Source: an uncultured Gemmatimonadaceae bacterium
Lineage (GTDB): Bacteria; Gemmatimonadota; Gemmatimonadetes; Gemmatimonadales; Gemmatimonadaceae
Reading direction: 5' to 3'
Assembly: GCA_963761305.1 (NCBI GenBank)
Contig: CAVXGK010000001.1
Coordinates: forward strand, 1,120,001 to 1,184,000
DNA length: 64,000 bases
Shown: positions 3,688-40,718 of the stretch, piece by piece
How positions within the stretch are numbered: position 1 is the stretch's first letter
Layout of the letters: each line of letters starts with the position of its first letter
The notes under the pieces: generated by a model
What the model was told of the DNA's origin: nothing
Seen by the model: the letters and a program-made list of their open reading frames with translations, nothing else
The model's database searches: none
Made by a program: the position numbers and the translations under genes

Positions 3688-6558
3688 TTGCTGCGGCTGA
3701 GGACGTTCGGCGGCCTGTGGATCGAGAATTCGGAGGCACCCCTCGAACCGGGGAGCGGGCCGCGCCCGCGATCGCTCGCGCTGCTGGCCATCTGCGCGGC
3801 GGCGGGCGCCAAGGGAGTGAGCCGCGAGCGCGTGCTCGGCATTCTCTGGCCCGATTCGCACCCCGAGCGCGCGCGGCACGCACTCTCGCAGACGCTCTAC
3901 AATCTTCGGAAGGAAATCGGAAGCGACGTCGTCGTCTCGTCATCCGACCTCCGGCTGGACCCGCAACGGATATCGAGCGACGTCGACGAGTTTCGCGCGG
4001 CGATCGCGGCGAAGAGCTGGGCGGACGCGGCGGCTCTCTACACCGGTCCGTTTCTCGACGCTTTCTACATTGGCGATGCCGCCGAGTTCGAGCGCTGGGT
4101 CGATTCAGAACGAGAGTCGCTTGCCGCCGATGCCGGCCGCGCGATCGAGACTGCCGCGAAGGCGTTCACCGAGTCCGGCAAGCACGACGAAGCGGCCGAC
4201 GCGCTGCGCCGACTCACCCGACTCGATCCGACGAACTCGCGGTTTGCCGCCAAGTATATGGAAGCGCTGGCTCGGCGCGGTGATCGAGCGGCCGCGATCG
4301 CGCACGGACGCGCGCACGCGGAGCTGTTGCAACGAGAGTTCGAGGTCGACCCGGATGCCGAGCTCGAACAACTCATCGGGCGGCTTCGCGAAGCTGCTCC
4401 ACCGGCGATCACGCCGGCGCCGGCTCGCGTCAAGACGCGGACGTCGGGATCGATACCAATCGCGTCGCCGGAGCGCGTCGACGTTCGAGCCTCCGGCGCC
4501 GTTCCCCTCGCCGCATCGCGCCGGCGCGGCGCTCGACCCGGCGCGCTCGCCGCCGCGGCGCTGGTCGTCGCCGTCATCGCGGCGGCCGCGATCGTTCGGC
4601 ATCCTACGGCCGCGGACGACACGCGTCGGCCCATCCTGGCCGTCGGGCACATTCGAGATCTCGATGTGTCCGACTCGGCCGCGCGGAACGGCGTGTCGAG
4701 CGAAATGCTCGCGACGAGCCTCGCTCGCTTGAGCCAGGTGCAGGTCGTTGCGAGCTCGCGAATGCTCGAGCTCACGCCGCGCAACGCTGACACGTCGCGG
4801 GCGACGTGGACCGGCGCGGCCCGACGCGCTGGAGCGACCGAGGTGCTCGAAGGCGAGTTCGTTCCCCTTCCCAACCAGACTTTGCAGCTCGACGTGCGGC
4901 GCGTCGACGTCGCGAACGGATTGGTGCGCGCCGCGTATCGAGCGTCGGGTCGCGACCGCGTCGCGTTGCTCGACAGCGTGACGTCGCTCATCGCGGCGGA
5001 CCTTGGCGTCCGGGCGCCGGTCGGTTCGTTCACCCAGGTGTCCACGCGCTCGGCGGTCGCGTTTCGTCTCTACGAAGAAGGGCTGCGGTCCTTCTATCAA
5101 TTCGACCCGCTCGCCGCGGGAAGACTCTTTCGCGCGTCGCTCCGTGAGGATTCGACGTTCGCGTTGGCGGCCTATTACGCGTGGCGATCCGCGGCCGCCG
5201 TCGGCGATTCTGAGCAGAGCTCGTTCGCCGACCGCGCGATGAAGCTCGCGCCGGCTGCGTCGGCGAGAGATCGATTGCTGATCGTCACCCACGTTGGGTT
5301 GGACCGCGACGATCCGCGGGCGTTGGCGTCGGCCGAGACGTTGGCGGTGATGTATCCGCGCGATCCGGAGGCGCTCATTCGCGCCGGCGAGGTCGTGCCA
5401 GACTTGTCGCAGTCGGTACAGCTGCTCAACCGATCCATCGCACTCGACTCGGCGGCCGGCGTCGGCGAAACTGCGATCTGCCGGCTCTGCGACGCGTTAA
5501 GCCTTCTCACCAAGCGCTACGAGTGGGCGGACTCCGACGCCGCCGTGCAGCGCACGCTCGCGCGGTGGCATTCGCTGCGGCCAAGCGATGCCGCACCATG
5601 GGGATTTCAGGCGGACTGGGAGACGGGGTTTGGTCGTCGCTCCGAAGCTGATTCGGCGATGCGTCGCTTCGTCGCGCTCGGCGGCGCGCACGGCGATGCC
5701 GGGCTCGATGGACTCATCCGCGGCCTTCGGCTCGACGACTTCAAGGCGGTTGACGCCGCGTGCGACGAGGGACTCGCGACGGAGGATTCGGCGCAGTTCG
5801 CCCAGTACCGTTGGTACTGCACGATCGGTCTTCGCATGGAAGGACGCTATCGGGATGCACTCTCGCTGGTTCACGACGGCCGCCTGCCCGCGGGACTGGC
5901 GCGGCGACGCGTCGGCCCCGAGCCGTATCTCGGCGCGATCGTCGACTTCGAGATGGGCCGGCCCCGAACTGCGGCGGACCAGTTCCTCGCGCTGAGCGGG
6001 CGGGCGAGCGACACGACTGGAATCAGCGCACGGCAGAAGTATTCACGCACCGAGGCGTGGTTCCTCACGCTCGCGGCGACGGCGTGGGTCGCCGGCAACG
6101 ACACGTTGTCGGCGCGGCGCATGGTGGACACCATCGAGATGGTGGGAAGCCGAAGTCTCTTCGCGCGAAATCCGCTGCTGCATCACTTCGTGCGCGGTCT
6201 GCTGTACTCGTCGGCGCGTCAGGACGACGCCGCCGTTCGCGAATTTCGAGCGGCGATGAATTCGCCGACGTTCGGATACACGCGCATCAACTACGAGCTG
6301 GGAAAAACGCTGCTGGCCGAACACAGACCGCGCGACGGCATTCCCGTCGTGCAGGCCGCGCTGCACGGTGGCATCGAAGGGTCGGGGCTTTATCTCACAC
6401 GGACCGAGCTGCACGAGCTGCTCGCTCGGTTGTTCGACGCCGCCGGGCAACGCGACAGCGCGAGAGCGCACTATCGTATCGTCGCCAGGGCGTGGGGATC
6501 CGCCGATTCGTTTCTCTGGGCGAGACGCGACAGCGCGCAGGCGATGGTGACGCGGTGA
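3688..6558 (+). CDS. SARP/BTAD-domain transmembrane transcriptional regulator with TPR-like C-terminal region
   Basis: LRLRTFGGL...SRERVLGILWPD...ALSQTLYNLRK, LYTGPFL, FERWVDSER; one TM helix near aa 285-303; helical repeats. Confidence 0.85.
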   Translation: MLRLRTFGGLWIENSEAPLEPGSGPRPRSLALLAICAAAGAKGVSRERVLGILWPDSHPERARHALSQTLYNLRKEIGSDVVVSSSDLRLDPQRISSDVDEFRAAIAAKSWADAAALYTGPFLDAFYIGDAAEFERWVDSERESLAADAGRAIETAAKAFTESGKHDEAADALRRLTRLDPTNSRFAAKYMEALARRGDRAAAIAHGRAHAELLQREFEVDPDAELEQLIGRLREAAPPAITPAPARVKTRTSGSIPIASPERVDVRASGAVPLAASRRRGARPGALAAAALVVAVIAAAAIVRHPTAADDTRRPILAVGHIRDLDVSDSAARNGVSSEMLATSLARLSQVQVVASSRMLELTPRNADTSRATWTGAARRAGATEVLEGEFVPLPNQTLQLDVRRVDVANGLVRAAYRASGRDRVALLDSVTSLIAADLGVRAPVGSFTQVSTRSAVAFRLYEEGLRSFYQFDPLAAGRLFRASLREDSTFALAAYYAWRSAAAVGDSEQSSFADRAMKLAPAASARDRLLIVTHVGLDRDDPRALASAETLAVMYPRDPEALIRAGEVVPDLSQSVQLLNRSIALDSAAGVGETAICRLCDALSLLTKRYEWADSDAAVQRTLARWHSLRPSDAAPWGFQADWETGFGRRSEADSAMRRFVALGGAHGDAGLDGLIRGLRLDDFKAVDAACDEGLATEDSAQFAQYRWYCTIGLRMEGRYRDALSLVHDGRLPAGLARRRVGPEPYLGAIVDFEMGRPRTAADQFLALSGRASDTTGISARQKYSRTEAWFLTLAATAWVAGNDTLSARRMVDTIEMVGSRSLFARNPLLHHFVRGLLYSSARQDDAAVREFRAAMNSPTFGYTRINYELGKTLLAEHRPRDGIPVVQAALHGGIEGSGLYLTRTELHELLARLFDAAGQRDSARAHYRIVARAWGSADSFLWARRDSAQAMVTR

Positions 6559-31287: not shown

Positions 31288-33204
31288 TTAGGCAGCGCCC
31301 ACGGTTTCCCCGGCGCGCGCCGGGCGCGGCGCGGCGCGCGCGCCCTCCTCTTCGACCAGACTCACGATCCCCGTTTCGAGCCAGGAGTGCTCGCCACGCA
31401 TCACCTGCTGCGCGACTTTGTACATCTGCGCGTCGTACTCGCCGTAGAAGTTCGCGAACAGGTGCTTCACTCGCATCTGCGCCGCTCGGCAGAAGAGATC
31501 CGCCAGCGTGATCGCCTCGCGATTCCCCTGCTTGGCGAGCATCTGTGCCCGCACGCACGTCGCCGCCATCGCGAACAGCTCGGCACCGATGTCGACGGCT
31601 CTGAACAACACGAGCTGCCGCCGCTCGAGCTTCGGCCCGAGCCGGACCATGGCGTGGAAAATCGCCCGCCCGAGCTTCCGCGTGTGGCGTTCGGCGAAGC
31701 GCATGTGCTTGGCGAGCGATCCGAAGCTCCGGAACGATCCCGGGACCTGGCCGGCGCCGATCCACCGCGCCGGATACCACGCCGGATAGAACTTCATCAC
31801 GCGCCCGAACGCGGCCGCCTTCTCGGCGCCCGACGAGTTCTTGTCCACGAGGGCGAATGCGGTCTTGAAATGATGGTCCACCGCCTCGCGGGCGATGAAC
31901 AAGCGCATGATCTCCGACGAGCCCTCGAAGATCAGGTTGATCCGCGCGTCGCGCATCGCGCGCTCGAGCGGGATCGGACGCTCGCCGCGCGCGCGCAGCG
32001 AGTCAGCCGTCTCGTAGCCGCGGCCGCCGCGGATCTGCAACGCGTCGTCGACGATGCGCCAGCCGTGCTCCGTGTTGTACATCTTGGCGATGGCGGCTTC
32101 CAACCGGATGTCGTAGTTCCCGCGCTCGGCCAGGCCGACGGTGAGTCCGGCGATCGCTTCCATCGCGAACGTGTTCGCCGCCATCATGCCGAGCTTCTGC
32201 GCGATCGCTTCGTGTTTGCCGATCGGGACGCCCCACTGCACGCGTTCCGTCGCCCACGTCCGCGACGCCTCGAGCAGCGCCTTGCATCCGCCGGCCGTGC
32301 TCGCCGGCAGCGTGAGCCGACCCGTGTTCAGCGTGACGAGCGCGATCTTGAGCCCGCGTCCTTCTTCCCAGAGGACGTTCTCGCGCGGGACGCGGACTTT
32401 ATTGAAGCGAATGACGCCGTTTTCGATGGCCTTGAGGCCCATGAAGCGGCAACGATGCACGACTTCGACGCCGGGCCACGACGCTTCGACGATGAACGCC
32501 GTGATCTGCTTGCGCGTCTTGCCTTTCACGACCGCGTCGGGAGTGCGCGCCATCACGACGAACAGCTCGGCGCGCGTGCCGTTGGTGCACCAGAGCTTTT
32601 CGCCCTCGAGGATGTAGTACTTCCCATCCGGCGTCAGCTCGGCGTGCGTATGCATGTTCGCCGGATCGGAGCCCGCGTCGACCTCGGTGAGGGCGAACGC
32701 GCTGATCGAGCCCTTGGCCAAGCGCGGGAAATACTTGGCCTTCTGCTCGTCGTTGCCGAATAATTTGAGCGGCTGCGGCAGGCCTATCGACTGGTGTGCG
32801 GAGAGCAGCGCGGTGAGCGATCCGTCCTTCGACGTCACCAGCGCCATCGCTTTCACATAACTCGAATATGAGAGTCCGAGGCCGCCGTATTCCTTCGGGA
32901 TCTTGATCCCGAACGCGCCCATGTCCCGCAGCTCCTGGACGTATTCCTCGGGAATCTCACCCGTGCGGTCGATCATGTCCGCATCGACCCGCTCGAGGAA
33001 TTCGCGCAGCGTCGTCAGGAAAGGCCCCGCGCGCGCCTCTTCGTCCGGATCGTCGGGTGGGTGCGGGTGGATCAGGTCGAGGCGAAAGCGGCCGAGGAAC
33101 ATCTCGCGCACGAAACTCGGACCCGACCATTCGCTCTCGCGCGCCGCCTCCGCAACGTCTCGTGCCTCACCCTCCGAGGCATGCGTGCTCGATTGCTGTG
33201 ACAT
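31288..33204 (-). CDS. Acyl-CoA dehydrogenase (long, FadE10/ACAD9-like)
   Basis: AFALTEVDAGSD, GEKLWCTNG, GGRGYE, RINLIFEGSSEI. Confidence 0.93.
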   Translation of the reverse strand: MSQQSSTHASEGEARDVAEAARESEWSGPSFVREMFLGRFRLDLIHPHPPDDPDEEARAGPFLTTLREFLERVDADMIDRTGEIPEEYVQELRDMGAFGIKIPKEYGGLGLSYSSYVKAMALVTSKDGSLTALLSAHQSIGLPQPLKLFGNDEQKAKYFPRLAKGSISAFALTEVDAGSDPANMHTHAELTPDGKYYILEGEKLWCTNGTRAELFVVMARTPDAVVKGKTRKQITAFIVEASWPGVEVVHRCRFMGLKAIENGVIRFNKVRVPRENVLWEEGRGLKIALVTLNTGRLTLPASTAGGCKALLEASRTWATERVQWGVPIGKHEAIAQKLGMMAANTFAMEAIAGLTVGLAERGNYDIRLEAAIAKMYNTEHGWRIVDDALQIRGGRGYETADSLRARGERPIPLERAMRDARINLIFEGSSEIMRLFIAREAVDHHFKTAFALVDKNSSGAEKAAAFGRVMKFYPAWYPARWIGAGQVPGSFRSFGSLAKHMRFAERHTRKLGRAIFHAMVRLGPKLERRQLVLFRAVDIGAELFAMAATCVRAQMLAKQGNREAITLADLFCRAAQMRVKHLFANFYGEYDAQMYKVAQQVMRGEHSWLETGIVSLVEEEGARAAPRPARAGETVGAA

Positions 33205-33296
33205 GGATGACTCACATTCGGCGAAAGCATCGCCAAGGTTGGGCTTCACGGCGATGGTGCCGTCCATGGCTTCCCACGCGATCCCCCGCCGAAATA

Positions 33297-33313
33297 TGCA
33301 ACCCGTGCGCCCA
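33297..33313 (-). promoter_or_regulatory. Possible sigma-54 promoter upstream of the acyl-CoA dehydrogenase
   Basis: Minus strand GGGCGCACGGGTTGCA fits GG-N10-GC with TTGCA at -12; the -24 element is imperfect. Confidence 0.3.
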
Positions 33314-33354
33314 AAGCGGGTCGATCAGGAAATTCGATTCGGCGACCAGTTCGC

Positions 33355-34101
33355 TCAACGTCTCGCGTCCCCGGCGCCGCGCTCGGGCAGTGGAATCGGC
33401 TCGGTTCGCGGCTCGCGTCGCTGCTTGATCACGACCCCGACGCCGACGAGCGCGATCAACGCGAACGCGAACCACTGGATGGCGTAGTTCAGATGCGGCC
33501 CCTCGTCGAGCGGCGGCGGAGTGAGGCGCGCCAATCGGTCCGGGGCCACCACCGAATCGCCGAGCATGATCACGTAGACGGGGGCGACGGGATACGGAAG
33601 CGCTCTCCGAACCGCGGCATAGCCGAGCCGCGTGATCACGTTCGGACGCGTCGGCGACATGGTGCCGTCGACCGACGGAAGCTCTTCCACGAAGCCCGCG
33701 AATACGGAATCCCGCTCGCGCCACCTGGCGAGATCGACCGTCTCACCGTCCGGCGCGTAGACCCAGCCGCGATCGACGATCACCGCCGTGTCGCGACCCG
33801 GCACGCGGATCGGCGTCAGGATGTTCACGCCGGGCGATCCCTTGTACGACCGCGATGCGTAGACGAGCTCGTGATCATAGTCGGGCGTCCCGCTGACGTG
33901 CGCGCGCCGAAATCGAAGCGACGCCGAATCGCCGGTGAGCGTCGCGATGTTGGCGTCGGACTGCTCCAGCCGCGACATCACGAGCGCGTTGCGCGCCCGA
34001 CGTTCGGCCAACCGATGAAGCTGCCAGAAGCCCAGCCGAACGAAGATCGCCGCGGAGATGAGGGCGAACGCGACGAACGCCGGAAGACGAAGCGTGTTCA
34101 A
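33355..34101 (-). CDS. SURF1 family protein
   Basis: LGFWQLHR, VDRGWV, HLNYAIQWF; TTGA overlap with the upstream stop. Confidence 0.9.
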   Translation of the reverse strand: MNTLRLPAFVAFALISAAIFVRLGFWQLHRLAERRARNALVMSRLEQSDANIATLTGDSASLRFRRAHVSGTPDYDHELVYASRSYKGSPGVNILTPIRVPGRDTAVIVDRGWVYAPDGETVDLARWRERDSVFAGFVEELPSVDGTMSPTRPNVITRLGYAAVRRALPYPVAPVYVIMLGDSVVAPDRLARLTPPPLDEGPHLNYAIQWFAFALIALVGVGVVIKQRREPRTEPIPLPERGAGDARR

Positions 34102-35579
34102 CGCACGGTGACGTCGAACACGCCGGTGAGCACGTCGTGGGCGGGTTTTACCTGCACCCACATGCGGTAGCGACCGGATTTCGGGAATTCATATGGAAGC
34201 GTGAACTCGCCGCTCATGGACATGCCGGACATCGGCTCCCGGTTCAGAACGCCGGGCTTGATCCGGCCGTGCGCGGTCGTGTCGCCGGCGTCGCGCGCGC
34301 GAAACACCTGCTGCGCGGTCGTCGACACCGTGCCCATCGGATGCAGATGGATGAAGACCGACTGGTCGTCGCGCACGATCACGGCGTGCGCGGCCATGCC
34401 GAGGTACGGGTTCAACGTCGCGGGGCGCCCAAGCTGGTCGTGAATGCTGAACGCGAGATCGACCGGTGTCTTGGCGACGAGCGACGTCGACGAATTGGAC
34501 AGCGTCATCGTGTAGCCATCGCCGAGCGACGTCGTCGCACCCGCGGCGGTGAGCTCCACGCCCGGCGTGCTCGCCCACGAGTCGTCGCTGTCCGAGGGCG
34601 CGATGGTGCCGAGCATCGCGGGCAGCGTGAGCGTGTCGGTCGCGGTGAGCGCGAGGCCGTTGTCGAGCATGATGTCGGCGAACAAGCGGTAGTTCCCGGC
34701 CGGAAGCCACGGCGCCTGCCCCACGAACACGAGCGAATCCTTTTCGATCGGATGCAGATGCGCGAACACGTCCATGTTCTGCCCGCCGACCAGAAACAGG
34801 TGCATCATCTTGCCGTGATCCGGCGCGACGGGCACGAAGATCGAGCGAAACTCGGCCGTATCGCGCAGCACCACTCTCATCGTGCGGTGTGTCGAGTCGC
34901 TGGTAATGGTGACGTTGGCGATGGGGGGACGGAACATCGTCCGCTGATAGTCGGCGTCGACTGAATTCCACCAACGCGCGCCGCCGAAAAGCAGGACGGC
35001 GAGAACCGGCACCGAGATCGCGGTGATGGCGTTCGCGCGCCGCTTGCGTGCGGCGTCGATCTCCTCGCCGGGAGGTACGAGACTCTCACCCGACGCCGCG
35101 CGCACGATCGTGACGAGACCGGCGACCAACAATCCGGTGAGCGCGAGGAGAATCGTAGCGAGTCCGGGAGAGATTCCGAGGCGGCCGGTGGCGAACGAAT
35201 CCACCGGCACGATTGCCGTGCCGTTTCCACGGCGGCCGTCGACGCGCACGTAGACGCTGTACGACCCGCGCGCCATGAGCCACACCTGCCCACTGTACAG
35301 CCGCGATTGACCGGCGACGCGTGCGATCTTGTCCGGCGACGGCGATCCGGCGACACCAGTTCGCCAGAACACCGACTGAATGCTCACGCTGTCCACGTCG
35401 TCGCTCGCCGTCCGCACGATCACTTCAGCGAGACCGGGCACGACGGACGGGGGTCGCACGATGGCGCGAATCACGTACGGACCCGCCGCGCCGTCGAACG
35501 TGACGTCCGGGCTGCCGACGTGTGCCGACGCGACGACCCACGCCGCGACGGCGAATGCGATTCCCGCCCAACGCTTCAT
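34098..35579 (-). CDS. Periplasmic, membrane-anchored His-rich metal-binding protein with PmoB/AmoB-like topology
   Basis: Signal peptide ending ASA|HVGSP, beta domain, two TM helices, C-terminal domains with DHGKMMHLF, FAHLHP, MAAHAV, FIHLHP. Confidence 0.7.
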   Translation of the reverse strand: MKRWAGIAFAVAAWVVASAHVGSPDVTFDGAAGPYVIRAIVRPPSVVPGLAEVIVRTASDDVDSVSIQSVFWRTGVAGSPSPDKIARVAGQSRLYSGQVWLMARGSYSVYVRVDGRRGNGTAIVPVDSFATGRLGISPGLATILLALTGLLVAGLVTIVRAASGESLVPPGEEIDAARKRRANAITAISVPVLAVLLFGGARWWNSVDADYQRTMFRPPIANVTITSDSTHRTMRVVLRDTAEFRSIFVPVAPDHGKMMHLFLVGGQNMDVFAHLHPIEKDSLVFVGQAPWLPAGNYRLFADIMLDNGLALTATDTLTLPAMLGTIAPSDSDDSWASTPGVELTAAGATTSLGDGYTMTLSNSSTSLVAKTPVDLAFSIHDQLGRPATLNPYLGMAAHAVIVRDDQSVFIHLHPMGTVSTTAQQVFRARDAGDTTAHGRIKPGVLNREPMSGMSMSGEFTLPYEFPKSGRYRMWVQVKPAHDVLTGVFDVTVR

Positions 35580-36694
35580 CTGCGGACTCTGGTCATCCAG
35601 CGTCCGCGCGCCAGACCGATGGCGCTCGTGGCGGTGGCGATGCCGACGGCGATCAACATCTGCACCGGAAACGGCCACGATCCGGCCGGCGGCGGATCGA
35701 ACCGGCGAGTCATCGCCTCGTACGACGGCGCCATGAAGTAAACGAAGTTGTCGGCGTTGAAGAGCGGTCCGCGCGCGACGGGATTCGTCACCAGGAACGT
35801 CGCGAACGGCCACTGCACCGCGGTGAATGCCAGCACGAACACGACGCCGACGATCGGCGCCAGCTGGAGCGTGGAGAGCCGTTTGTCGAGACGATGCAGG
35901 ACGAGGTCGACGCAGAATGCCGGCACGATGAGCAGCAGCGGGAACGACAGCGCCACCATGTGCGTGACGTGCTGGTAGATCGGGCCCAGCTTGGGCGTCG
36001 CCGGGAATTGCTCGATCAGCCACATCAGCACGAGCATGATGGCCGTGTAGAACGCCGCGGCGGCGGTGGCCGGCCAACGCAGGTTGATCGCGCGCGCCAT
36101 CGCGCCGATGGCGAGAGGGAAGACGAGCGCCGTCACCTGATAGAAAGACGGGCTGTGCATCATGCGCCGTTCGCTGAACTCGGTGAGAAACAGCGCGGCG
36201 TTCATGATTACCAGGCCGCCCGTCGCGGCGAGCAGCCAGGCGAGACGTCCGCGCGCCTCCGGCGCGGCGCGATTCTGCTGGGCGAGCGTGAGCAGCACGG
36301 CGCCCAGGCAGATCGAGAAAATGCCGAGCGCGAGAACGGCGTGCGGTGGACTCACGATCTTGACGTCGAGGCCGTAGGCATTGTGCCACCAGTTGTCGAA
36401 CGGCGCCGACGTGAGCATCGCGCCGCAGCCCCAGATGCAGAGCCACGCGCCGAGCGGGCCGCGGAAACCCCAGAAGTGCACGGACGCCGCGCGCTCGGCG
36501 TCCGTCCCGGCGAACGTGGTGTGGAGCACGACCCAGCCGGAGCTCAGTCCGGCGAGCAACCCGCCGGCCTGGATCAGCAGGTGGGCGGGCGTCCAGAACG
36601 TGTCCCGCCCGATCGACATGTGCCACGAGATGTCCCAGTACACGCCGGCCATGACGCAGAAGGCGGCGAAGGCGACCGTATAAGCGTGCTTCAT
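35576..36694 (-). CDS. Polytopic membrane protein: PmoC/AmoC-like N-half and PmoA/AmoA-like C-half (putative)
   Basis: DISWHMSIGRDTFWTPAH and DNWWHNAYGLDVKIVSPPH; FPLA...LRWPAT, FPLLLIVPAFCVDLVL, AFTAVQWP. Confidence 0.7.
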   Translation of the reverse strand: MKHAYTVAFAAFCVMAGVYWDISWHMSIGRDTFWTPAHLLIQAGGLLAGLSSGWVVLHTTFAGTDAERAASVHFWGFRGPLGAWLCIWGCGAMLTSAPFDNWWHNAYGLDVKIVSPPHAVLALGIFSICLGAVLLTLAQQNRAAPEARGRLAWLLAATGGLVIMNAALFLTEFSERRMMHSPSFYQVTALVFPLAIGAMARAINLRWPATAAAAFYTAIMLVLMWLIEQFPATPKLGPIYQHVTHMVALSFPLLLIVPAFCVDLVLHRLDKRLSTLQLAPIVGVVFVLAFTAVQWPFATFLVTNPVARGPLFNADNFVYFMAPSYEAMTRRFDPPPAGSWPFPVQMLIAVGIATATSAIGLARGRWMTRVRR

Positions 36695-37504
36695 TTAGAA
36701 GAGACTCATCTGTTCGCCGAGCTGCTCGGGTTCCACCGCGGCCTGCCCGAACAGCCGCTGGAGATCCCGCGCTGACTCCGGCGAGTGCCCGGCGAAGTGG
36801 TTGTTGACGTATCCGTAAACCTCGCGACCCTGTTCCGCGTACGGCCAGAGCGCCTGCGTCCACGCCTCGAGCTCGCGCCGCCGGTCGACCTGGATGCGCG
36901 AGTAGTCGACGATGCCCTGGTCCGGCCCCATCCACCTGATGTAGAGAAAATCGGCCGTTGGACGGGTCGCCAACTGCAGCATCTGCTTGCGCGGAATCCA
37001 GCGCCCGTCGCTCAGCGCGAGCGCGACGTGATGCTCGGCGAGCAGCGCGAGCACGCCGTCGTGGATCCAACCCCGCTGGCGGAACTCGACGGCGAACCGG
37101 ATGTCGCGCGGCAGCTTGGGCAGAAACTGGGCGAGGGCCGGCAGCTCGTTTGGCGCGAAGTCCGGTCCGAGTTGAACGAGAACCGGCCCGAGCTTGCGGC
37201 CGAGCTCGCGTGCCCGGTCGACGAACTCATCCATGAGGTCGTCGGCGTTACGGAGCCGATGCTCGTGGGTGATCTCCTGCGGGACCTTGAGGGCGAAAAT
37301 GAAGTCGTCCGGGGTCCGCTCGGCCCAGCCGCGAACCGTTTTGGCGGCCGGCGTGGCATAGAACGTCGAATCGACCTCAACCGTGTCGAAGCCCCGCGCG
37401 TAGACGGTCAAATAGTCGGCGGGGCGAGTACCTTCAGGATAGAAGGGTCCGACCCAGGCGTCGTAGTTCCAGCCTTGTGTCCCTATGCGAATTCTGCCCG
37501 GCAT
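36695..37504 (-). CDS. DUF72 (YecE-like) protein
   Basis: IGTQGWNY...W...FYP, VEVDSTFY, FALKVP, AVEFR, YIRW, YVNNHFAGHSP. Confidence 0.92.
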   Translation of the reverse strand: MPGRIRIGTQGWNYDAWVGPFYPEGTRPADYLTVYARGFDTVEVDSTFYATPAAKTVRGWAERTPDDFIFALKVPQEITHEHRLRNADDLMDEFVDRARELGRKLGPVLVQLGPDFAPNELPALAQFLPKLPRDIRFAVEFRQRGWIHDGVLALLAEHHVALALSDGRWIPRKQMLQLATRPTADFLYIRWMGPDQGIVDYSRIQVDRRRELEAWTQALWPYAEQGREVYGYVNNHFAGHSPESARDLQRLFGQAAVEPEQLGEQMSLF

Positions 37505-37651
37505 ACGAGGAATCGGCACGCAAGGAATGCGTGCGTCAAGGCGCGAATTCGATTGCGCACGCGACCCGGTTCCGTGATATCGTGAAAGCAGGTAGACGGT
37601 GGAGGGGTGAACGCTTTGACGGCGGGCGCCGCGAGGAGAATCAGGAGCATC

Positions 37652-38215
37652 ATGCACGCGAACGATGAGAACGACAACAGCGGACCGGCAATCGATCGAA
37701 TTGAAGGCGTGTCGGGGGCGCTGGTTGGAGCAGGGATCGGCTCGGCCGCCGGGCCGGTCGGAGCGATCATCGGCAGCGTTGCGGGGGCGATCGGTGGATG
37801 GTGGGCAGGACACGCCATCATCGAGGCGGCGCGGTCGGTGAATCACGAGGACGAGGAGCATTTTCGCGAGCACTACGATTCGCTCGCGGAACGGCCGGCG
37901 GATCGAGCATACGACGACGTGCGCGGCGTGTACTACCTCGGCCAGATCGCCAGCCATCATCCCGATTTCGCGTCCGGCGAGTTCAGGGATCTGGAGGCCG
38001 AGCTCGAGAAGGGCTGGGCGACGCACGGCACCACACACGGCTCATGGGCCAGCATGCGGGATTGCGCGGCGGCCGGTTTCAACCGCGGTCGCGCGAAGCT
38101 CGACGAGATGGCGCGTCACGCGCGAGCCGAGTGGGAGAGCCGTCGCGGCGCTTCGAGCCGGCACGCACGAATGGCGAATGGCTGCCGCTCAGGACACGAA
38201 GATCTGACGCGCTAG
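37652..38215 (+). CDS. Hypothetical protein with glycine-zipper segment
   Basis: AGGAG RBS; GALVGAGIGSAAGPVGAIIGSVAGAIGGW. Confidence 0.7.
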   Translation: MHANDENDNSGPAIDRIEGVSGALVGAGIGSAAGPVGAIIGSVAGAIGGWWAGHAIIEAARSVNHEDEEHFREHYDSLAERPADRAYDDVRGVYYLGQIASHHPDFASGEFRDLEAELEKGWATHGTTHGSWASMRDCAAAGFNRGRAKLDEMARHARAEWESRRGASSRHARMANGCRSGHEDLTR

Positions 38216-38860
38216 CACCGGGCCGATCGATCGGTTCGAACGGCCTACGCGCAATGTGATCGGGCCGTCGAAGGGCGCCCGCGACACGACCTCGACGCGC
38301 GTGCCGGGGACGATCCCCAGCTCGGCCAAGTATCTGAGCTGTCCCGGATCGCGGTCGCCGACGCGCTCGACGCGAACGCGCCGGCCTTCGTCGACGTCGG
38401 CCAGGCTCGCCAGCGACTGTTCGCGAAGGATGCCCTCGCGGGTCGGAATCGGCGCGCCGTGCGGATCGGTCGTCGGCTCGCCGATCGCGGCGGCCATCCG
38501 ATCGATCAGCTCGTCCGACGCGGCATGCTCGAGACGCTCGGCCTCCTGGTGCACTCGGTCCCAGGGGTAGTCGAGCGCTTGCGTGAGATACGCTTCGATC
38601 ACGCGATGCCGGCGAATCGTGCGGAGCGCGGCGCGTCGGCCGTCGCGCGTGAGACGCACGCCGCGATAGCGCTCGTGCGTGATGAGGCGCTGGCCGGCCA
38701 GTCGTCGCACCATGCCGCTCACCGAGGCCGGGGCGACACCCAATTCAGCGGCGATCTCGTTGGTACCGGCCGGCTCGCCCGCGCTCTCGAGCTCGAAGAT
38801 CACCTTCAGGTAGTCTTCGGCCGGTGCGGTGAGCGGCTGGCTCGCGCGCACGGCGGTCAC
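38189..38860 (-). CDS. mntR: DtxR/MntR-family metal-dependent regulator with FeoA domain
   Basis: EDYLKVIF, SVSGMVRRL, RRHRVIE, EAERLEH, DPHGAPIP. Confidence 0.9.
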   Translation of the reverse strand: MTAVRASQPLTAPAEDYLKVIFELESAGEPAGTNEIAAELGVAPASVSGMVRRLAGQRLITHERYRGVRLTRDGRRAALRTIRRHRVIEAYLTQALDYPWDRVHQEAERLEHAASDELIDRMAAAIGEPTTDPHGAPIPTREGILREQSLASLADVDEGRRVRVERVGDRDPGQLRYLAELGIVPGTRVEVVSRAPFDGPITLRVGRSNRSIGPVLARQIFVS

Positions 38861-39327
38861 AGCGGCTTCTCTGGTGGAGCGATCGGGTTCTCGCGCGGCG
38901 TTCGGCGTTCGCCGCGCACGAGCAGCACGGGCACGCGTGAGCGGTGACGTACTTCGTTCGCCACGCTGCCGTAGATGATGTCCTTGATGAATCGATGGCC
39001 GTGCGTCGACATCGCGATCAGGTCGCACGACTCGCGCGCCGCGGCGGCCGAGATCTCGCTCGCCGGATCGCCCGCGGCGAGGACGCAGTCGGCGGGCAGC
39101 CCGCTCGCGTTCAGGGCGGCGCACTGAGCCTCGATGTACTCGCGGTCCAGCCGCATCTCTTCCGATTCGCGCAGATGGAGCTGCTTCACGTTGCGCGCGG
39201 CCCATCCGTCGGCGACGTGGATGAGCACGAGCGACGCACCGCAGAACCGCGCCAGCGCGGACACGTGCTCGAGAATCGCCGAGTCGTAGTCGGAGTGCTC
39301 GAGCGGAACGAGGATGCGCTTGTACAT
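38857..39327 (-). CDS. Universal stress protein
   Basis: [24 protein letters not shown]...VPVLLV. Confidence 0.92.
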   Translation of the reverse strand: MYKRILVPLEHSDYDSAILEHVSALARFCGASLVLIHVADGWAARNVKQLHLRESEEMRLDREYIEAQCAALNASGLPADCVLAAGDPASEISAAAARESCDLIAMSTHGHRFIKDIIYGSVANEVRHRSRVPVLLVRGERRTPRENPIAPPEKPL

Positions 39328-40718
39328 CAGCCGATCCCCATCCACCCGCGCACGGTTTGCGCGAGCAGCCACGCGTTCAGCGCCGCGATCGTGAGGGCGG
39401 TCGTCCACGCGACGACTTTGAGCCACGACGCGTTCACGAACGCGCCCATCTTGGCGCGATCGGACGTGAACGAGACGAGCGGAAAGACGGCGAACGAGAG
39501 CTGCAGGCTCAGAATCACCTGGCTGAGGATGAGCAACCGTGCGGTGCCGCTGGCGCCGTAGAAAATGGCGACGATGGCGGCCGGGACAATGGCGATCGCG
39601 CGCGTGATCAGCCGGCGCAGCCAGGGACGCAGCCGGATGTTGAGGAAGCCCTCCATCACGATCTGGCCGGCGAGCGTACCGGTGAGGGTCGAGTTCTGTC
39701 CCGACGCCAGGAGCGCCAGCGCGAACGCCGTGCTCGCGCCGGCGCCGAGGAGCGGCGTGAGCAGCTTGTACGCGTCCTGGATTTCGGCGACCTCGGCGTG
39801 GCCCGACGTATGGAACGTGGCCGCGGCCACGACGAGAATGGCCGCGTTGACGAAGAAGGCGAAGCTCAGCGCGATCGTCGAATCGAGAAACGCGAAGCGC
39901 ACCGCTTCGCGCCGCCCTTCGCTCGTCTCGGCGTAGCGCCGCGTCTGCACGATCGACGAATGCAGATAGAGGTTGTGCGGCATGACGGTCGCGCCGAGGA
40001 TGCCGATGGCGATGTAGAGCATCTCGGGGTCGCGGATGATGGCGGTGCTCGGCACGAACCCCTTCGCCAGTTGGCCGACGTTCGGATGCGCCAGAATGAT
40101 CTCGAACATGAAGCACAGGCCGACCGACGCAATGAGCGTGATCACCAGCGCCTCGAGCACGCGCACGCCACGATTCTGGAGCGCGAGCAGCAGCAGCACG
40201 TCGAAGCCGGTGACGAGCACGCCCACGACGATCGGCAGATGAAACAGCAGATTGAGCGCGATCGCCGAGCCGATGACTTCGGCGAGATCGCACGCGGCGA
40301 TGGCGATCTCGCAGAGGATCCAGAGCGCGGTGGCCGTGGGCTTCGAGTAGTGATCGCGGCAGGCCTGCGCGAGATCTCGGCCCGTCACGATGCCGAGCTT
40401 GGAGGCGAGCCCCTGGAGCAGCACGGCCATGATGTTCGACAGGAGCACGACACTCAGAAGCGTGTAGCCGAAGCGCGACCCGCCGGCGAGGTCGGTGGCC
40501 CAGTTGCCGGGATCCATGTACCCGACGGCGACGAGATACCCGGGTCCGGCGAACGCGAGGAGCTTGCCGAAGAACGAACGCGCGTCGATGGGGACGCTGC
40601 GGTAGACCTCCTGGAGGCTTGGCGCGACGCGCGAACGACGCCAGCCCTGCTCGGAATCGGAGTCCGGGGGCGGCTGATCGTCCTGTGGATCGGGGCGTAG
40701 GAGGCGAGGGAGAACCAA
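39327..40718 (-). CDS. mntH: Nramp Mn2+/Fe2+ transporter
   Basis: [42 protein letters not shown]. Confidence 0.95.

Follow-up and report, generated by a model that had tools for sequence, protein, structure and literature searches.

The 64,000-nucleotide stretch analysed here (the window; positions 1,120,001 to 1,184,000 of contig CAVXGK010000001.1, from an uncultured Gemmatimonadaceae bacterium) poses the question what a membrane protein does that carries motifs resembling both copper sites, CuC and CuD, of PmoC, subunit C of particulate methane monooxygenase (pMMO). The protein, of 372 amino acids and with ten helices, is encoded by gene 1 (35576..36694, on the reverse strand, like the partner gene and the parts of both that are described below), and the next gene (gene 2; 34098..35579) encodes a partner protein of 493 amino acids. 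We are highly confident that gene 1 encodes one chain in which a PmoC-like four-helix metal core (residues 1-142) is fused to a PmoA-like domain (residues 143-372), that its two D/H/(D)/H ligand sets stem from a duplicated hairpin and lie on the same membrane face, and that gene 2 is co-inherited and tightly coupled with it. The pair appears to form a remote branch, made up of two genes, of the superfamily of copper membrane monooxygenases (CuMMOs).

Ligand sets of gene 1 and their relation to subunit C

The CuC-like motif (D21, H25, D31 and H38; 36581..36634) is located at the outer end of helical hairpin 1 and the motif in the CuD position (D100, H104, D110 and H118; 36341..36397), an internal repeat of the first with Asp where the CuMMOs have Asn, at the outer end of hairpin 2. 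At the codon level D21 starts at 36634 and H118 ends at 36341, and H25, R30, D31, H38, D100, H104, D110 and P116 are all present; both motifs read as a first-pass annotation of the sequence had written them, and the limits it gave are exact. The double pattern was found in only one of the 20,933 reading frames (≥ 120 amino acids) of the host genome, gene 1 itself, while motif 1 by itself occurred in 3 and a looser motif 2 in 55 of these frames. Gene 1 and its partner are each present in a single copy.

The residues of both motifs, whose invariance across homologs the first-pass annotation had wanted checked, proved to be nearly invariant in an alignment of 108 of the 272 proteins, picked for length and spread (counts refer to the rows that cover the position): D21 (94/94), H25 (91/94), R30 (88/94), D31 (91/94) and H38 (94/94) in hairpin 1, and D100 (106/108), H104 (101/108), D110 (103/108) and H118 (104/108) in hairpin 2. 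All eight residues of the ligand sets were kept in 84 of the 94 rows that span both motifs; among the ten exceptions, three have lost H25, H104, D110 and H118 jointly and three look locally frameshifted.

Searches with the gene 1 protein in Pfam, in NCBIfam and, as a single sequence, in the PDB were all without a match. The profile of the family matched AmoC/PmoC and nothing else in the PDB (9 matches, best E 9.8e-5), all 14 matches of the domain profile were again AmoC/PmoC, with both motifs covered in four of the alignments, and PF04896, the family of PmoC, AmoC and HmoC, was matched weakly by 20 of the 108 members (E ≤ 0.1; best E 3.6e-4). Alignment with hhalign to PmoC alignments of 9 and 47 sequences gave probabilities of 85.6 and 90.8, with all six ligands in register, and in a decoy test the 47 PmoC/AmoC sequences took ranks 2-48, above 482 other membrane-like frames of the host. 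D21, H25, D31 and H38 are in exact register with D136, H140, D146 and H153 of the AmoC chain 9leg_C, including the Asp at +10. In the second set D100, H104 and H118 match N207, H211 and H225, with Asp for Asn, D110 (+10) faces E217, and the CuD ligand E218 (+11) has no counterpart in register in the gene 1 family. The AmoC ligands named in PMC13058606 are D136, H140, D146 and H153 together with N207, H211, E218 and H225, a numbering that we verified on 9leg_C; the same source gives D139V, H143V and D149A as changes by which HMO activity is lost.

The proposed homology of the first motif to the CuC site was supported by profile matches, decoy ranking and register, and the D156 given in the first-pass annotation for the M. 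capsulatus protein agrees with the register as well (profile position 20 corresponds to residue 155 of 1yew_C). The exchange of the CuD Asn for Asp holds throughout: Asn occupies the position in 47 of 47 PmoC/AmoC sequences and in none of the 108 aligned members of the gene 1 family. The claim of exact spacing stood for the interior of each triad (+4/+17 and +4/+18, identical to the triads of 9leg_C) but not for the distance between them, which is 79 in 59 of the 86 family rows that match both patterns (range 71-83; 22 of the 108 rows were unmatched), versus 71 in 34 of 47 PmoC/AmoC sequences (range 71-74) and 70 in the actinobacterial reference.

Residues on opposite membrane faces had been named as a refutation of the proposed metal site; the structure model of gene 1 (pLDDT 96.5) puts both on the same face. 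We consider it likely that this face is periplasmic and that a pair of neighbouring metal ions, most probably copper, is bound there, one ion by each set. Foldseek ranked PmoC first for the N-domain (E 0.099, TM 0.51), the best TM being 0.63 (7s4l_C). The rear domain (residues 143-372; 35579..36268) has six helices and showed the fold of subunit A in structural comparison, at 11-17% identity in the alignments with PmoA/AmoA; the PDB chains were here taken as subunit A from their length and the exclusion of named C chains. E172 (74/108, Asp in 8) and H180 (101/108), at 36155-36181 around the first outer loop of this domain, are conserved in a region that aligned with the acidic GDWxFWxDWKD region of PmoA, and further metal or substrate contacts are possible roles for them.

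The internal duplication suggested by the first-pass annotation holds for the gene 1 family, since hairpins 1 and 2 align mutually both in the main family (hhalign probability about 88; score 31.2, against 24.1 for the best of 40 shuffles) and in the actinobacterial branch described below (about 97.8-97.9). No alignment was detectable between the CuC and CuD halves of PmoC; we infer that the same duplication may lie at the origin of CuC and CuD themselves.

The partner protein

The partner gene overlaps gene 1 by four bases (ATGA), an arrangement found in 57 of 79 loci when starts were chosen near the upstream stop, and a partner was present at 79 of 80 related loci, the remaining one ending inside gene 1. 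The protein has a signal peptide, and its mature form is predicted to start with His20; a first soluble domain is followed by two membrane helices and then by two His-rich soluble domains that repeat each other. Domain 1 (residues 20-132; 35184..35522), of about 110 residues, begins with His after an AxA cleavage site and has an invariant W100 and M102. The predicted mature N-terminus is His in 60 of 63 full-length rows and Asp in three, all Gemmatimonadaceae (L004, L006 and L003, with starts at 3808, 1402 and 7110). The two rear domains are mutual repeats (probability 90), and so are their clusters: His cluster 1 (H255, H260, H274 and H276; 34749..34820) and His/Met cluster 2 (M395, H398, H411 and H413; 34338..34406), with every residue kept in 63 of 63 rows. 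Weak matches of domain 1 were to the 'Copper resistance protein' 9ll2 (E 0.012), which is probably CrdA of H. pylori, and, at E ≤ 0.1, to YtkA (3 of 63 members) and CopC (1 of 63), with E 0.016-0.029.

Size and spread of the family

Of 8,000 scored candidates, 7,976 clusters at 90% identity belong to the gene 1 family, a lower bound on its size; at 50% identity there are 1,954 clusters, and the nearest relatives of gene 1 are from Gemmatimonadaceae. Among 151 sampled genomes of the host phylum, of which those that are kin do not count as independent, gene 1 was matched in 34, the partner in 31 and both in 30. In one of the four genomes with gene 1 only the match was marginal; the copies in the other three have lost either H25 and D31 or the two motifs altogether. 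Of 151 genomes from the phylum of an acidobacterial host, 8 matched, one of which (G183) is unpublished and was counted only. Literature searches, which did not cover supplements, returned no paper describing the family.

Copies with partly or wholly lost ligands were found in three genomic loci (L181:4858-5997, L182:4077-5144 and L183:4347-5411) and among the proteins (P0219, P0245 and P0271); the genomic ones have no partner and lie in similar clusters with polysaccharide, sulfotransferase and acyl-carrier-like genes, which suggests that the scaffold has a non-metal function there. A plasmid of the cultured Bacteroidota species Chondrinema litorale (L089:5007-7832) carries a full-length relative (40% identity), followed after 3 bases by a hypothetical gene of 538 amino acids that is probably the partner. 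Two Binatia genomes (G004 and G001; loci L081 and L082) hold a true CuMMO C-A operon as well as a gene 1/partner pair, and the pair therefore does not simply replace a CuMMO; in L081 an SCO-like gene precedes xmoC.

The actinobacterial branch, of which 97 of 120 proteins were left after length and redundancy filters, aligned with the main family profile at a probability of 99.9 and has the same eight residues in 96-97 of 97 proteins. It consists of a single gene, with the membrane core, a conserved internal AxA-HDPGQG site after a hydrophobic helix and a C-terminal anchor; examples, of the P0273 family, are L088:6001-7428, L090:5965-7410, L098:5947-7380, L179:6917-8407 and L180:6905-8374. Cleavage at the internal site could expose an N-terminal His. 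The domain that starts with this site resembles partner domain 1 weakly (probability 15, E 0.002, 108 columns), and the fusion suggests that the membrane part and a partner-type domain may work together. Versions of the family occur in culturable Streptomyces and Mycolicibacterium; the plasmid of Mycolicibacterium chubuense NBB4 that contains hmoCAB also bears, at a distance of about 165 kb, a member of the fused branch (L086 and L180; NC_018022.1). A Rubrobacter plasmid copy (L091:6001-7022) seems to be split, its motif region lying outside the annotated gene that holds the rear half.

Comparison with known systems

We compared the pair with the nearest known systems: the three CuMMO subunits, the YcnJ/YcnI and CopC/CopD-YtkA systems and the S-components of ECF transporters (5EDL, 4Z7F, 5D0Y, 6ZG3). 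With PmoC/AmoC/HmoC (7S4H C, 9LEG C, 9PXF G) gene 1 shares the CuC motif D-x3-H-x5-D-x6-H with its RDT and TP, a second triad that occupies the CuD position, has identical internal spacing and retains the Pro, and the four-helix core. Unlike gene 1, these proteins have the CuD Asn, the Glu at +11 and the shorter distance between the triads, whereas gene 1 lacks the long N-terminal region before motif 1, still has a detectable internal repeat and is fused to an A-like domain; archaeal AmoC likewise lacks two helices (10.1101/2022.04.06.487334). The GDWxFWxDWKD signature of PmoA/AmoA (PF02461; 6CXH B, 7S4H B, 9LEG A) is not kept in gene 1, where subunit A is moreover part of the C chain. With PmoB/AmoB (PF04744) the partner has in common the signal peptide, the N-terminal His, a soluble domain, two membrane helices followed by more soluble domains, and its place as the last gene encoded; it is set apart, by profiles and sequence alone, through the lack of profile similarity and of the HxH in domain 1 and through its two extra repeated His-rich domains. 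The CuB His-brace (N-terminal His and HxH) is described as not universal in the CuMMO family (PMC13058606). CuMMOs occur in a three-gene form (xmoC, xmoA, xmoB), versus two genes here, with C and A in one frame. In sum, the pair is built like a CuMMO core but has neither the CuD Asn, the full CuB ligand set nor the three-gene layout, and it does not reach the curated cut-offs of PF04896, PF02461 or PF04744. The host genome (93% complete) gave no match to PF04896, PF02461 or PF04744; the first of these searches was positive in 2 of 5 Binatia genomes, and the other two were run without a positive control.

The YcnJ/YcnI and CopC/CopD-YtkA systems are alike in combining an exported N-terminal-His domain with a membrane component, in the weak YtkA, CopC and 9LL2 matches and in the copper islands of the Actinobacteria. 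They are unlike in that the membrane component of the pair is CuMMO-like and its fold points to PmoA, and the CopD family was not among the 25 of 32 families listed for the 108 members.

Function of the pair

The interpretation that we tentatively put first is that of a copper-dependent redox enzyme, since the C-A core is retained in full and the order C-A-B with it. The partner would be exported and held next to the C-A chain by its two helices, where PmoB sits in pMMO, would capture copper via its N-terminal His and His/Met clusters and would then load the site. With the membrane quinol pool as its source of electrons, the complex would activate O2 at the two-metal site and oxidise a small or lipophilic substrate, presumably in a role other than that of the first step in methane- or ammonia-dependent growth. 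The change from Asn to Asp would make both sites CuC-like and more anionic, and should alter redox potential and substrate range.

Several results weigh against such an enzyme. Foldseek gave no match at E ≤ 0.001, and a geometry-only ranking of the N-domain returned generic four-helix bundles, with PmoC not in the top 50. The similarity score to PmoC was not lowered by block shuffling, the signal being carried by motif 1; motif 2 by itself did not score significantly against the CuD half (about 1% probability in hhalign), yet it aligned ungapped and in register, and it is assigned to the CuD position because it is collinear in the whole-domain alignment. The first-pass proposal of a site homologous to the active site of pMMO is supported for the CuC half and for the Asn to Asp exchange, and less strongly than it was put for motif 2. 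At the sequence level the link to PmoA is weak (probability 20-42%), and in the actinobacterial branch it falls short of significance. The partner showed no profile homology to PmoB (hhalign 0.4-3.4%), and the HxH of CuB and any second conserved His are missing from its domain 1 (63 rows). Asp/His/His sets also suit Zn, Fe or Mn. No conserved pathway gene was present among 114 of the 303 neighbour clusters from the 80 closest loci, where recurring genes were lineage-specific only, and no substrate is therefore indicated. Finally, 4 of 7 actinobacterial plasmid loci are copper-resistance islands, which fit copper homeostasis better.

In a homeostasis module, a possibility to which we give somewhat less credence, the partner would scavenge periplasmic copper and hand it to the PmoC-like site, which would act on no organic substrate and would buffer the copper, change its oxidation state or pass it on for import or for the loading of a cuproenzyme such as heme-copper oxidase, like YcnJ/YcnI or CopCD. 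Its standing is owed to the island context and to the likeness of the partner to chaperones. Next to the actinobacterial relatives the islands contain genes for CopC, cupredoxins, multicopper oxidases, heavy-metal P-type ATPases and a metal-sensitive regulator; of the three other plasmid loci two have only a BlaI/MecI/CopY-family regulator and one has none of these. The weak resemblance of partner domain 1 to 9ll2, YtkA and CopC points the same way, as does a SURF1 gene directly after the pair in 18 loci, all of them Gemmatimonadaceae or Gemmatimonas. Two acidobacterial loci (L185:5606-8471 and L186:2648-5573) have genes for a YtkA-like lipoprotein and a di-haem CCP/MauG-family peroxidase directly upstream of the pair, and YtkA domains have been tied to the copper loading of oxidases, where they help to build the CuA centre (PMC13344008). 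However, the copper-island loci are all plasmid records and thus a biased sample, and no copper-handling family occurred among the 114 neighbour clusters scanned. Moreover, both ligand sets lie at one surface, no conserved relay of His, Met or Cys, such as transport would require, was seen further inside the four helices, and the PmoA-like domain is left unexplained. A homeostatic role and an O2-activating enzyme can overlap.

It is improbable that the pair is a non-redox binuclear metallohydrolase (Zn, Mn or Fe) that reuses the CuMMO C-A scaffold on a lipid or envelope substrate. Asp/His/His sets with an extra Asp are of the kind found in membrane hydrolases, and the two sets with their conserved D31 and D110, the Asp that replaces the CuD Asn and the degenerate orphan copies in polysaccharide/sulfotransferase clusters would all suit such an activity, but the N-terminal His and His/Met clusters of the partner and the copper-island context point to copper, and no hydrolase fold or family was matched. 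More improbable still is a front half that is convergent or partly homologous, with a CuC-like hairpin duplicated independently and motif 2 a second CuC copy instead of the CuD orthologue: hairpin 2 does score 12.2 against the CuD half and 14.2 against the CuC half (both non-significant), and the hairpins of the family are strongly alike while those halves are not detectably so, but the spacing of motif 2 is that of CuD (+18) and not that of CuC (+17), its alignment to CuD runs ungapped over 34-36 columns, the triads are 70 apart in the actinobacterial branch versus 71 in PmoC, and the PmoA-like domain fused to the front half shows that the protein and the CuMMO core descend from a common ancestor.

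A bolder reading, which we regard as rather unlikely, is that the family is a widespread minimal two-component copper oxygenase that keeps the ancestral active site of pMMO and ammonia monooxygenase (AMO). One hairpin of the type DxxWH...D...PxH would then have been duplicated to give CuC and CuD, the Asn of CuD would have arisen afterwards, a copper-loading protein of unrelated origin could take the place of PmoB, and an unrecognised substrate would be oxidised in common soil heterotrophs. Whether CuC, CuD or both form the catalytic site of pMMO/AMO is described as open, and expressing and mutating these enzymes is described as difficult (PMC13058606). A homologue that unites C and A in one chain, with a natural Asn to Asp variant and a twofold repeat, available in easily cultured actinobacteria, would be a tractable model of a two-metal site, and the family would serve as an outgroup for the origin of the pMMO/AMO enzymes. 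Whichever function holds, a common and unannotated soil system would be explained, and weak AmoC matches of this kind should not be read as methane or ammonia oxidation.

Genetic context of the pair

In the window (31288-37546) the genes for a DUF72 protein, gene 1, the partner and SURF1 abut or overlap and are followed by one for an acyl-CoA dehydrogenase. The DUF72 gene (36695..37546, reverse strand; own start approximate) abuts the start codon of gene 1, and the SURF1-family gene (33355..34101, reverse strand) overlaps the stop codon of the partner (TTGA). Both are lineage-specific neighbours, SURF1 in Gemmatimonadaceae and outside the conserved core, and the run of genes is probably transcribed as a unit in this lineage. 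About 1.5 kb upstream of gene 1 (38189-40718) lie genes for an Nramp transporter, a probable universal stress protein and a DtxR/MntR regulator, an association present in just 4-5 of the 80 loci. In the two acidobacterial loci L185 and L186 the His clusters of the partner are partly decayed. In the second copy in genome G037 (L184:3374-11153) gene 1 and the partner are separated by four genes, one of them for a GMC oxidoreductase, and a small cupredoxin gene lies downstream.
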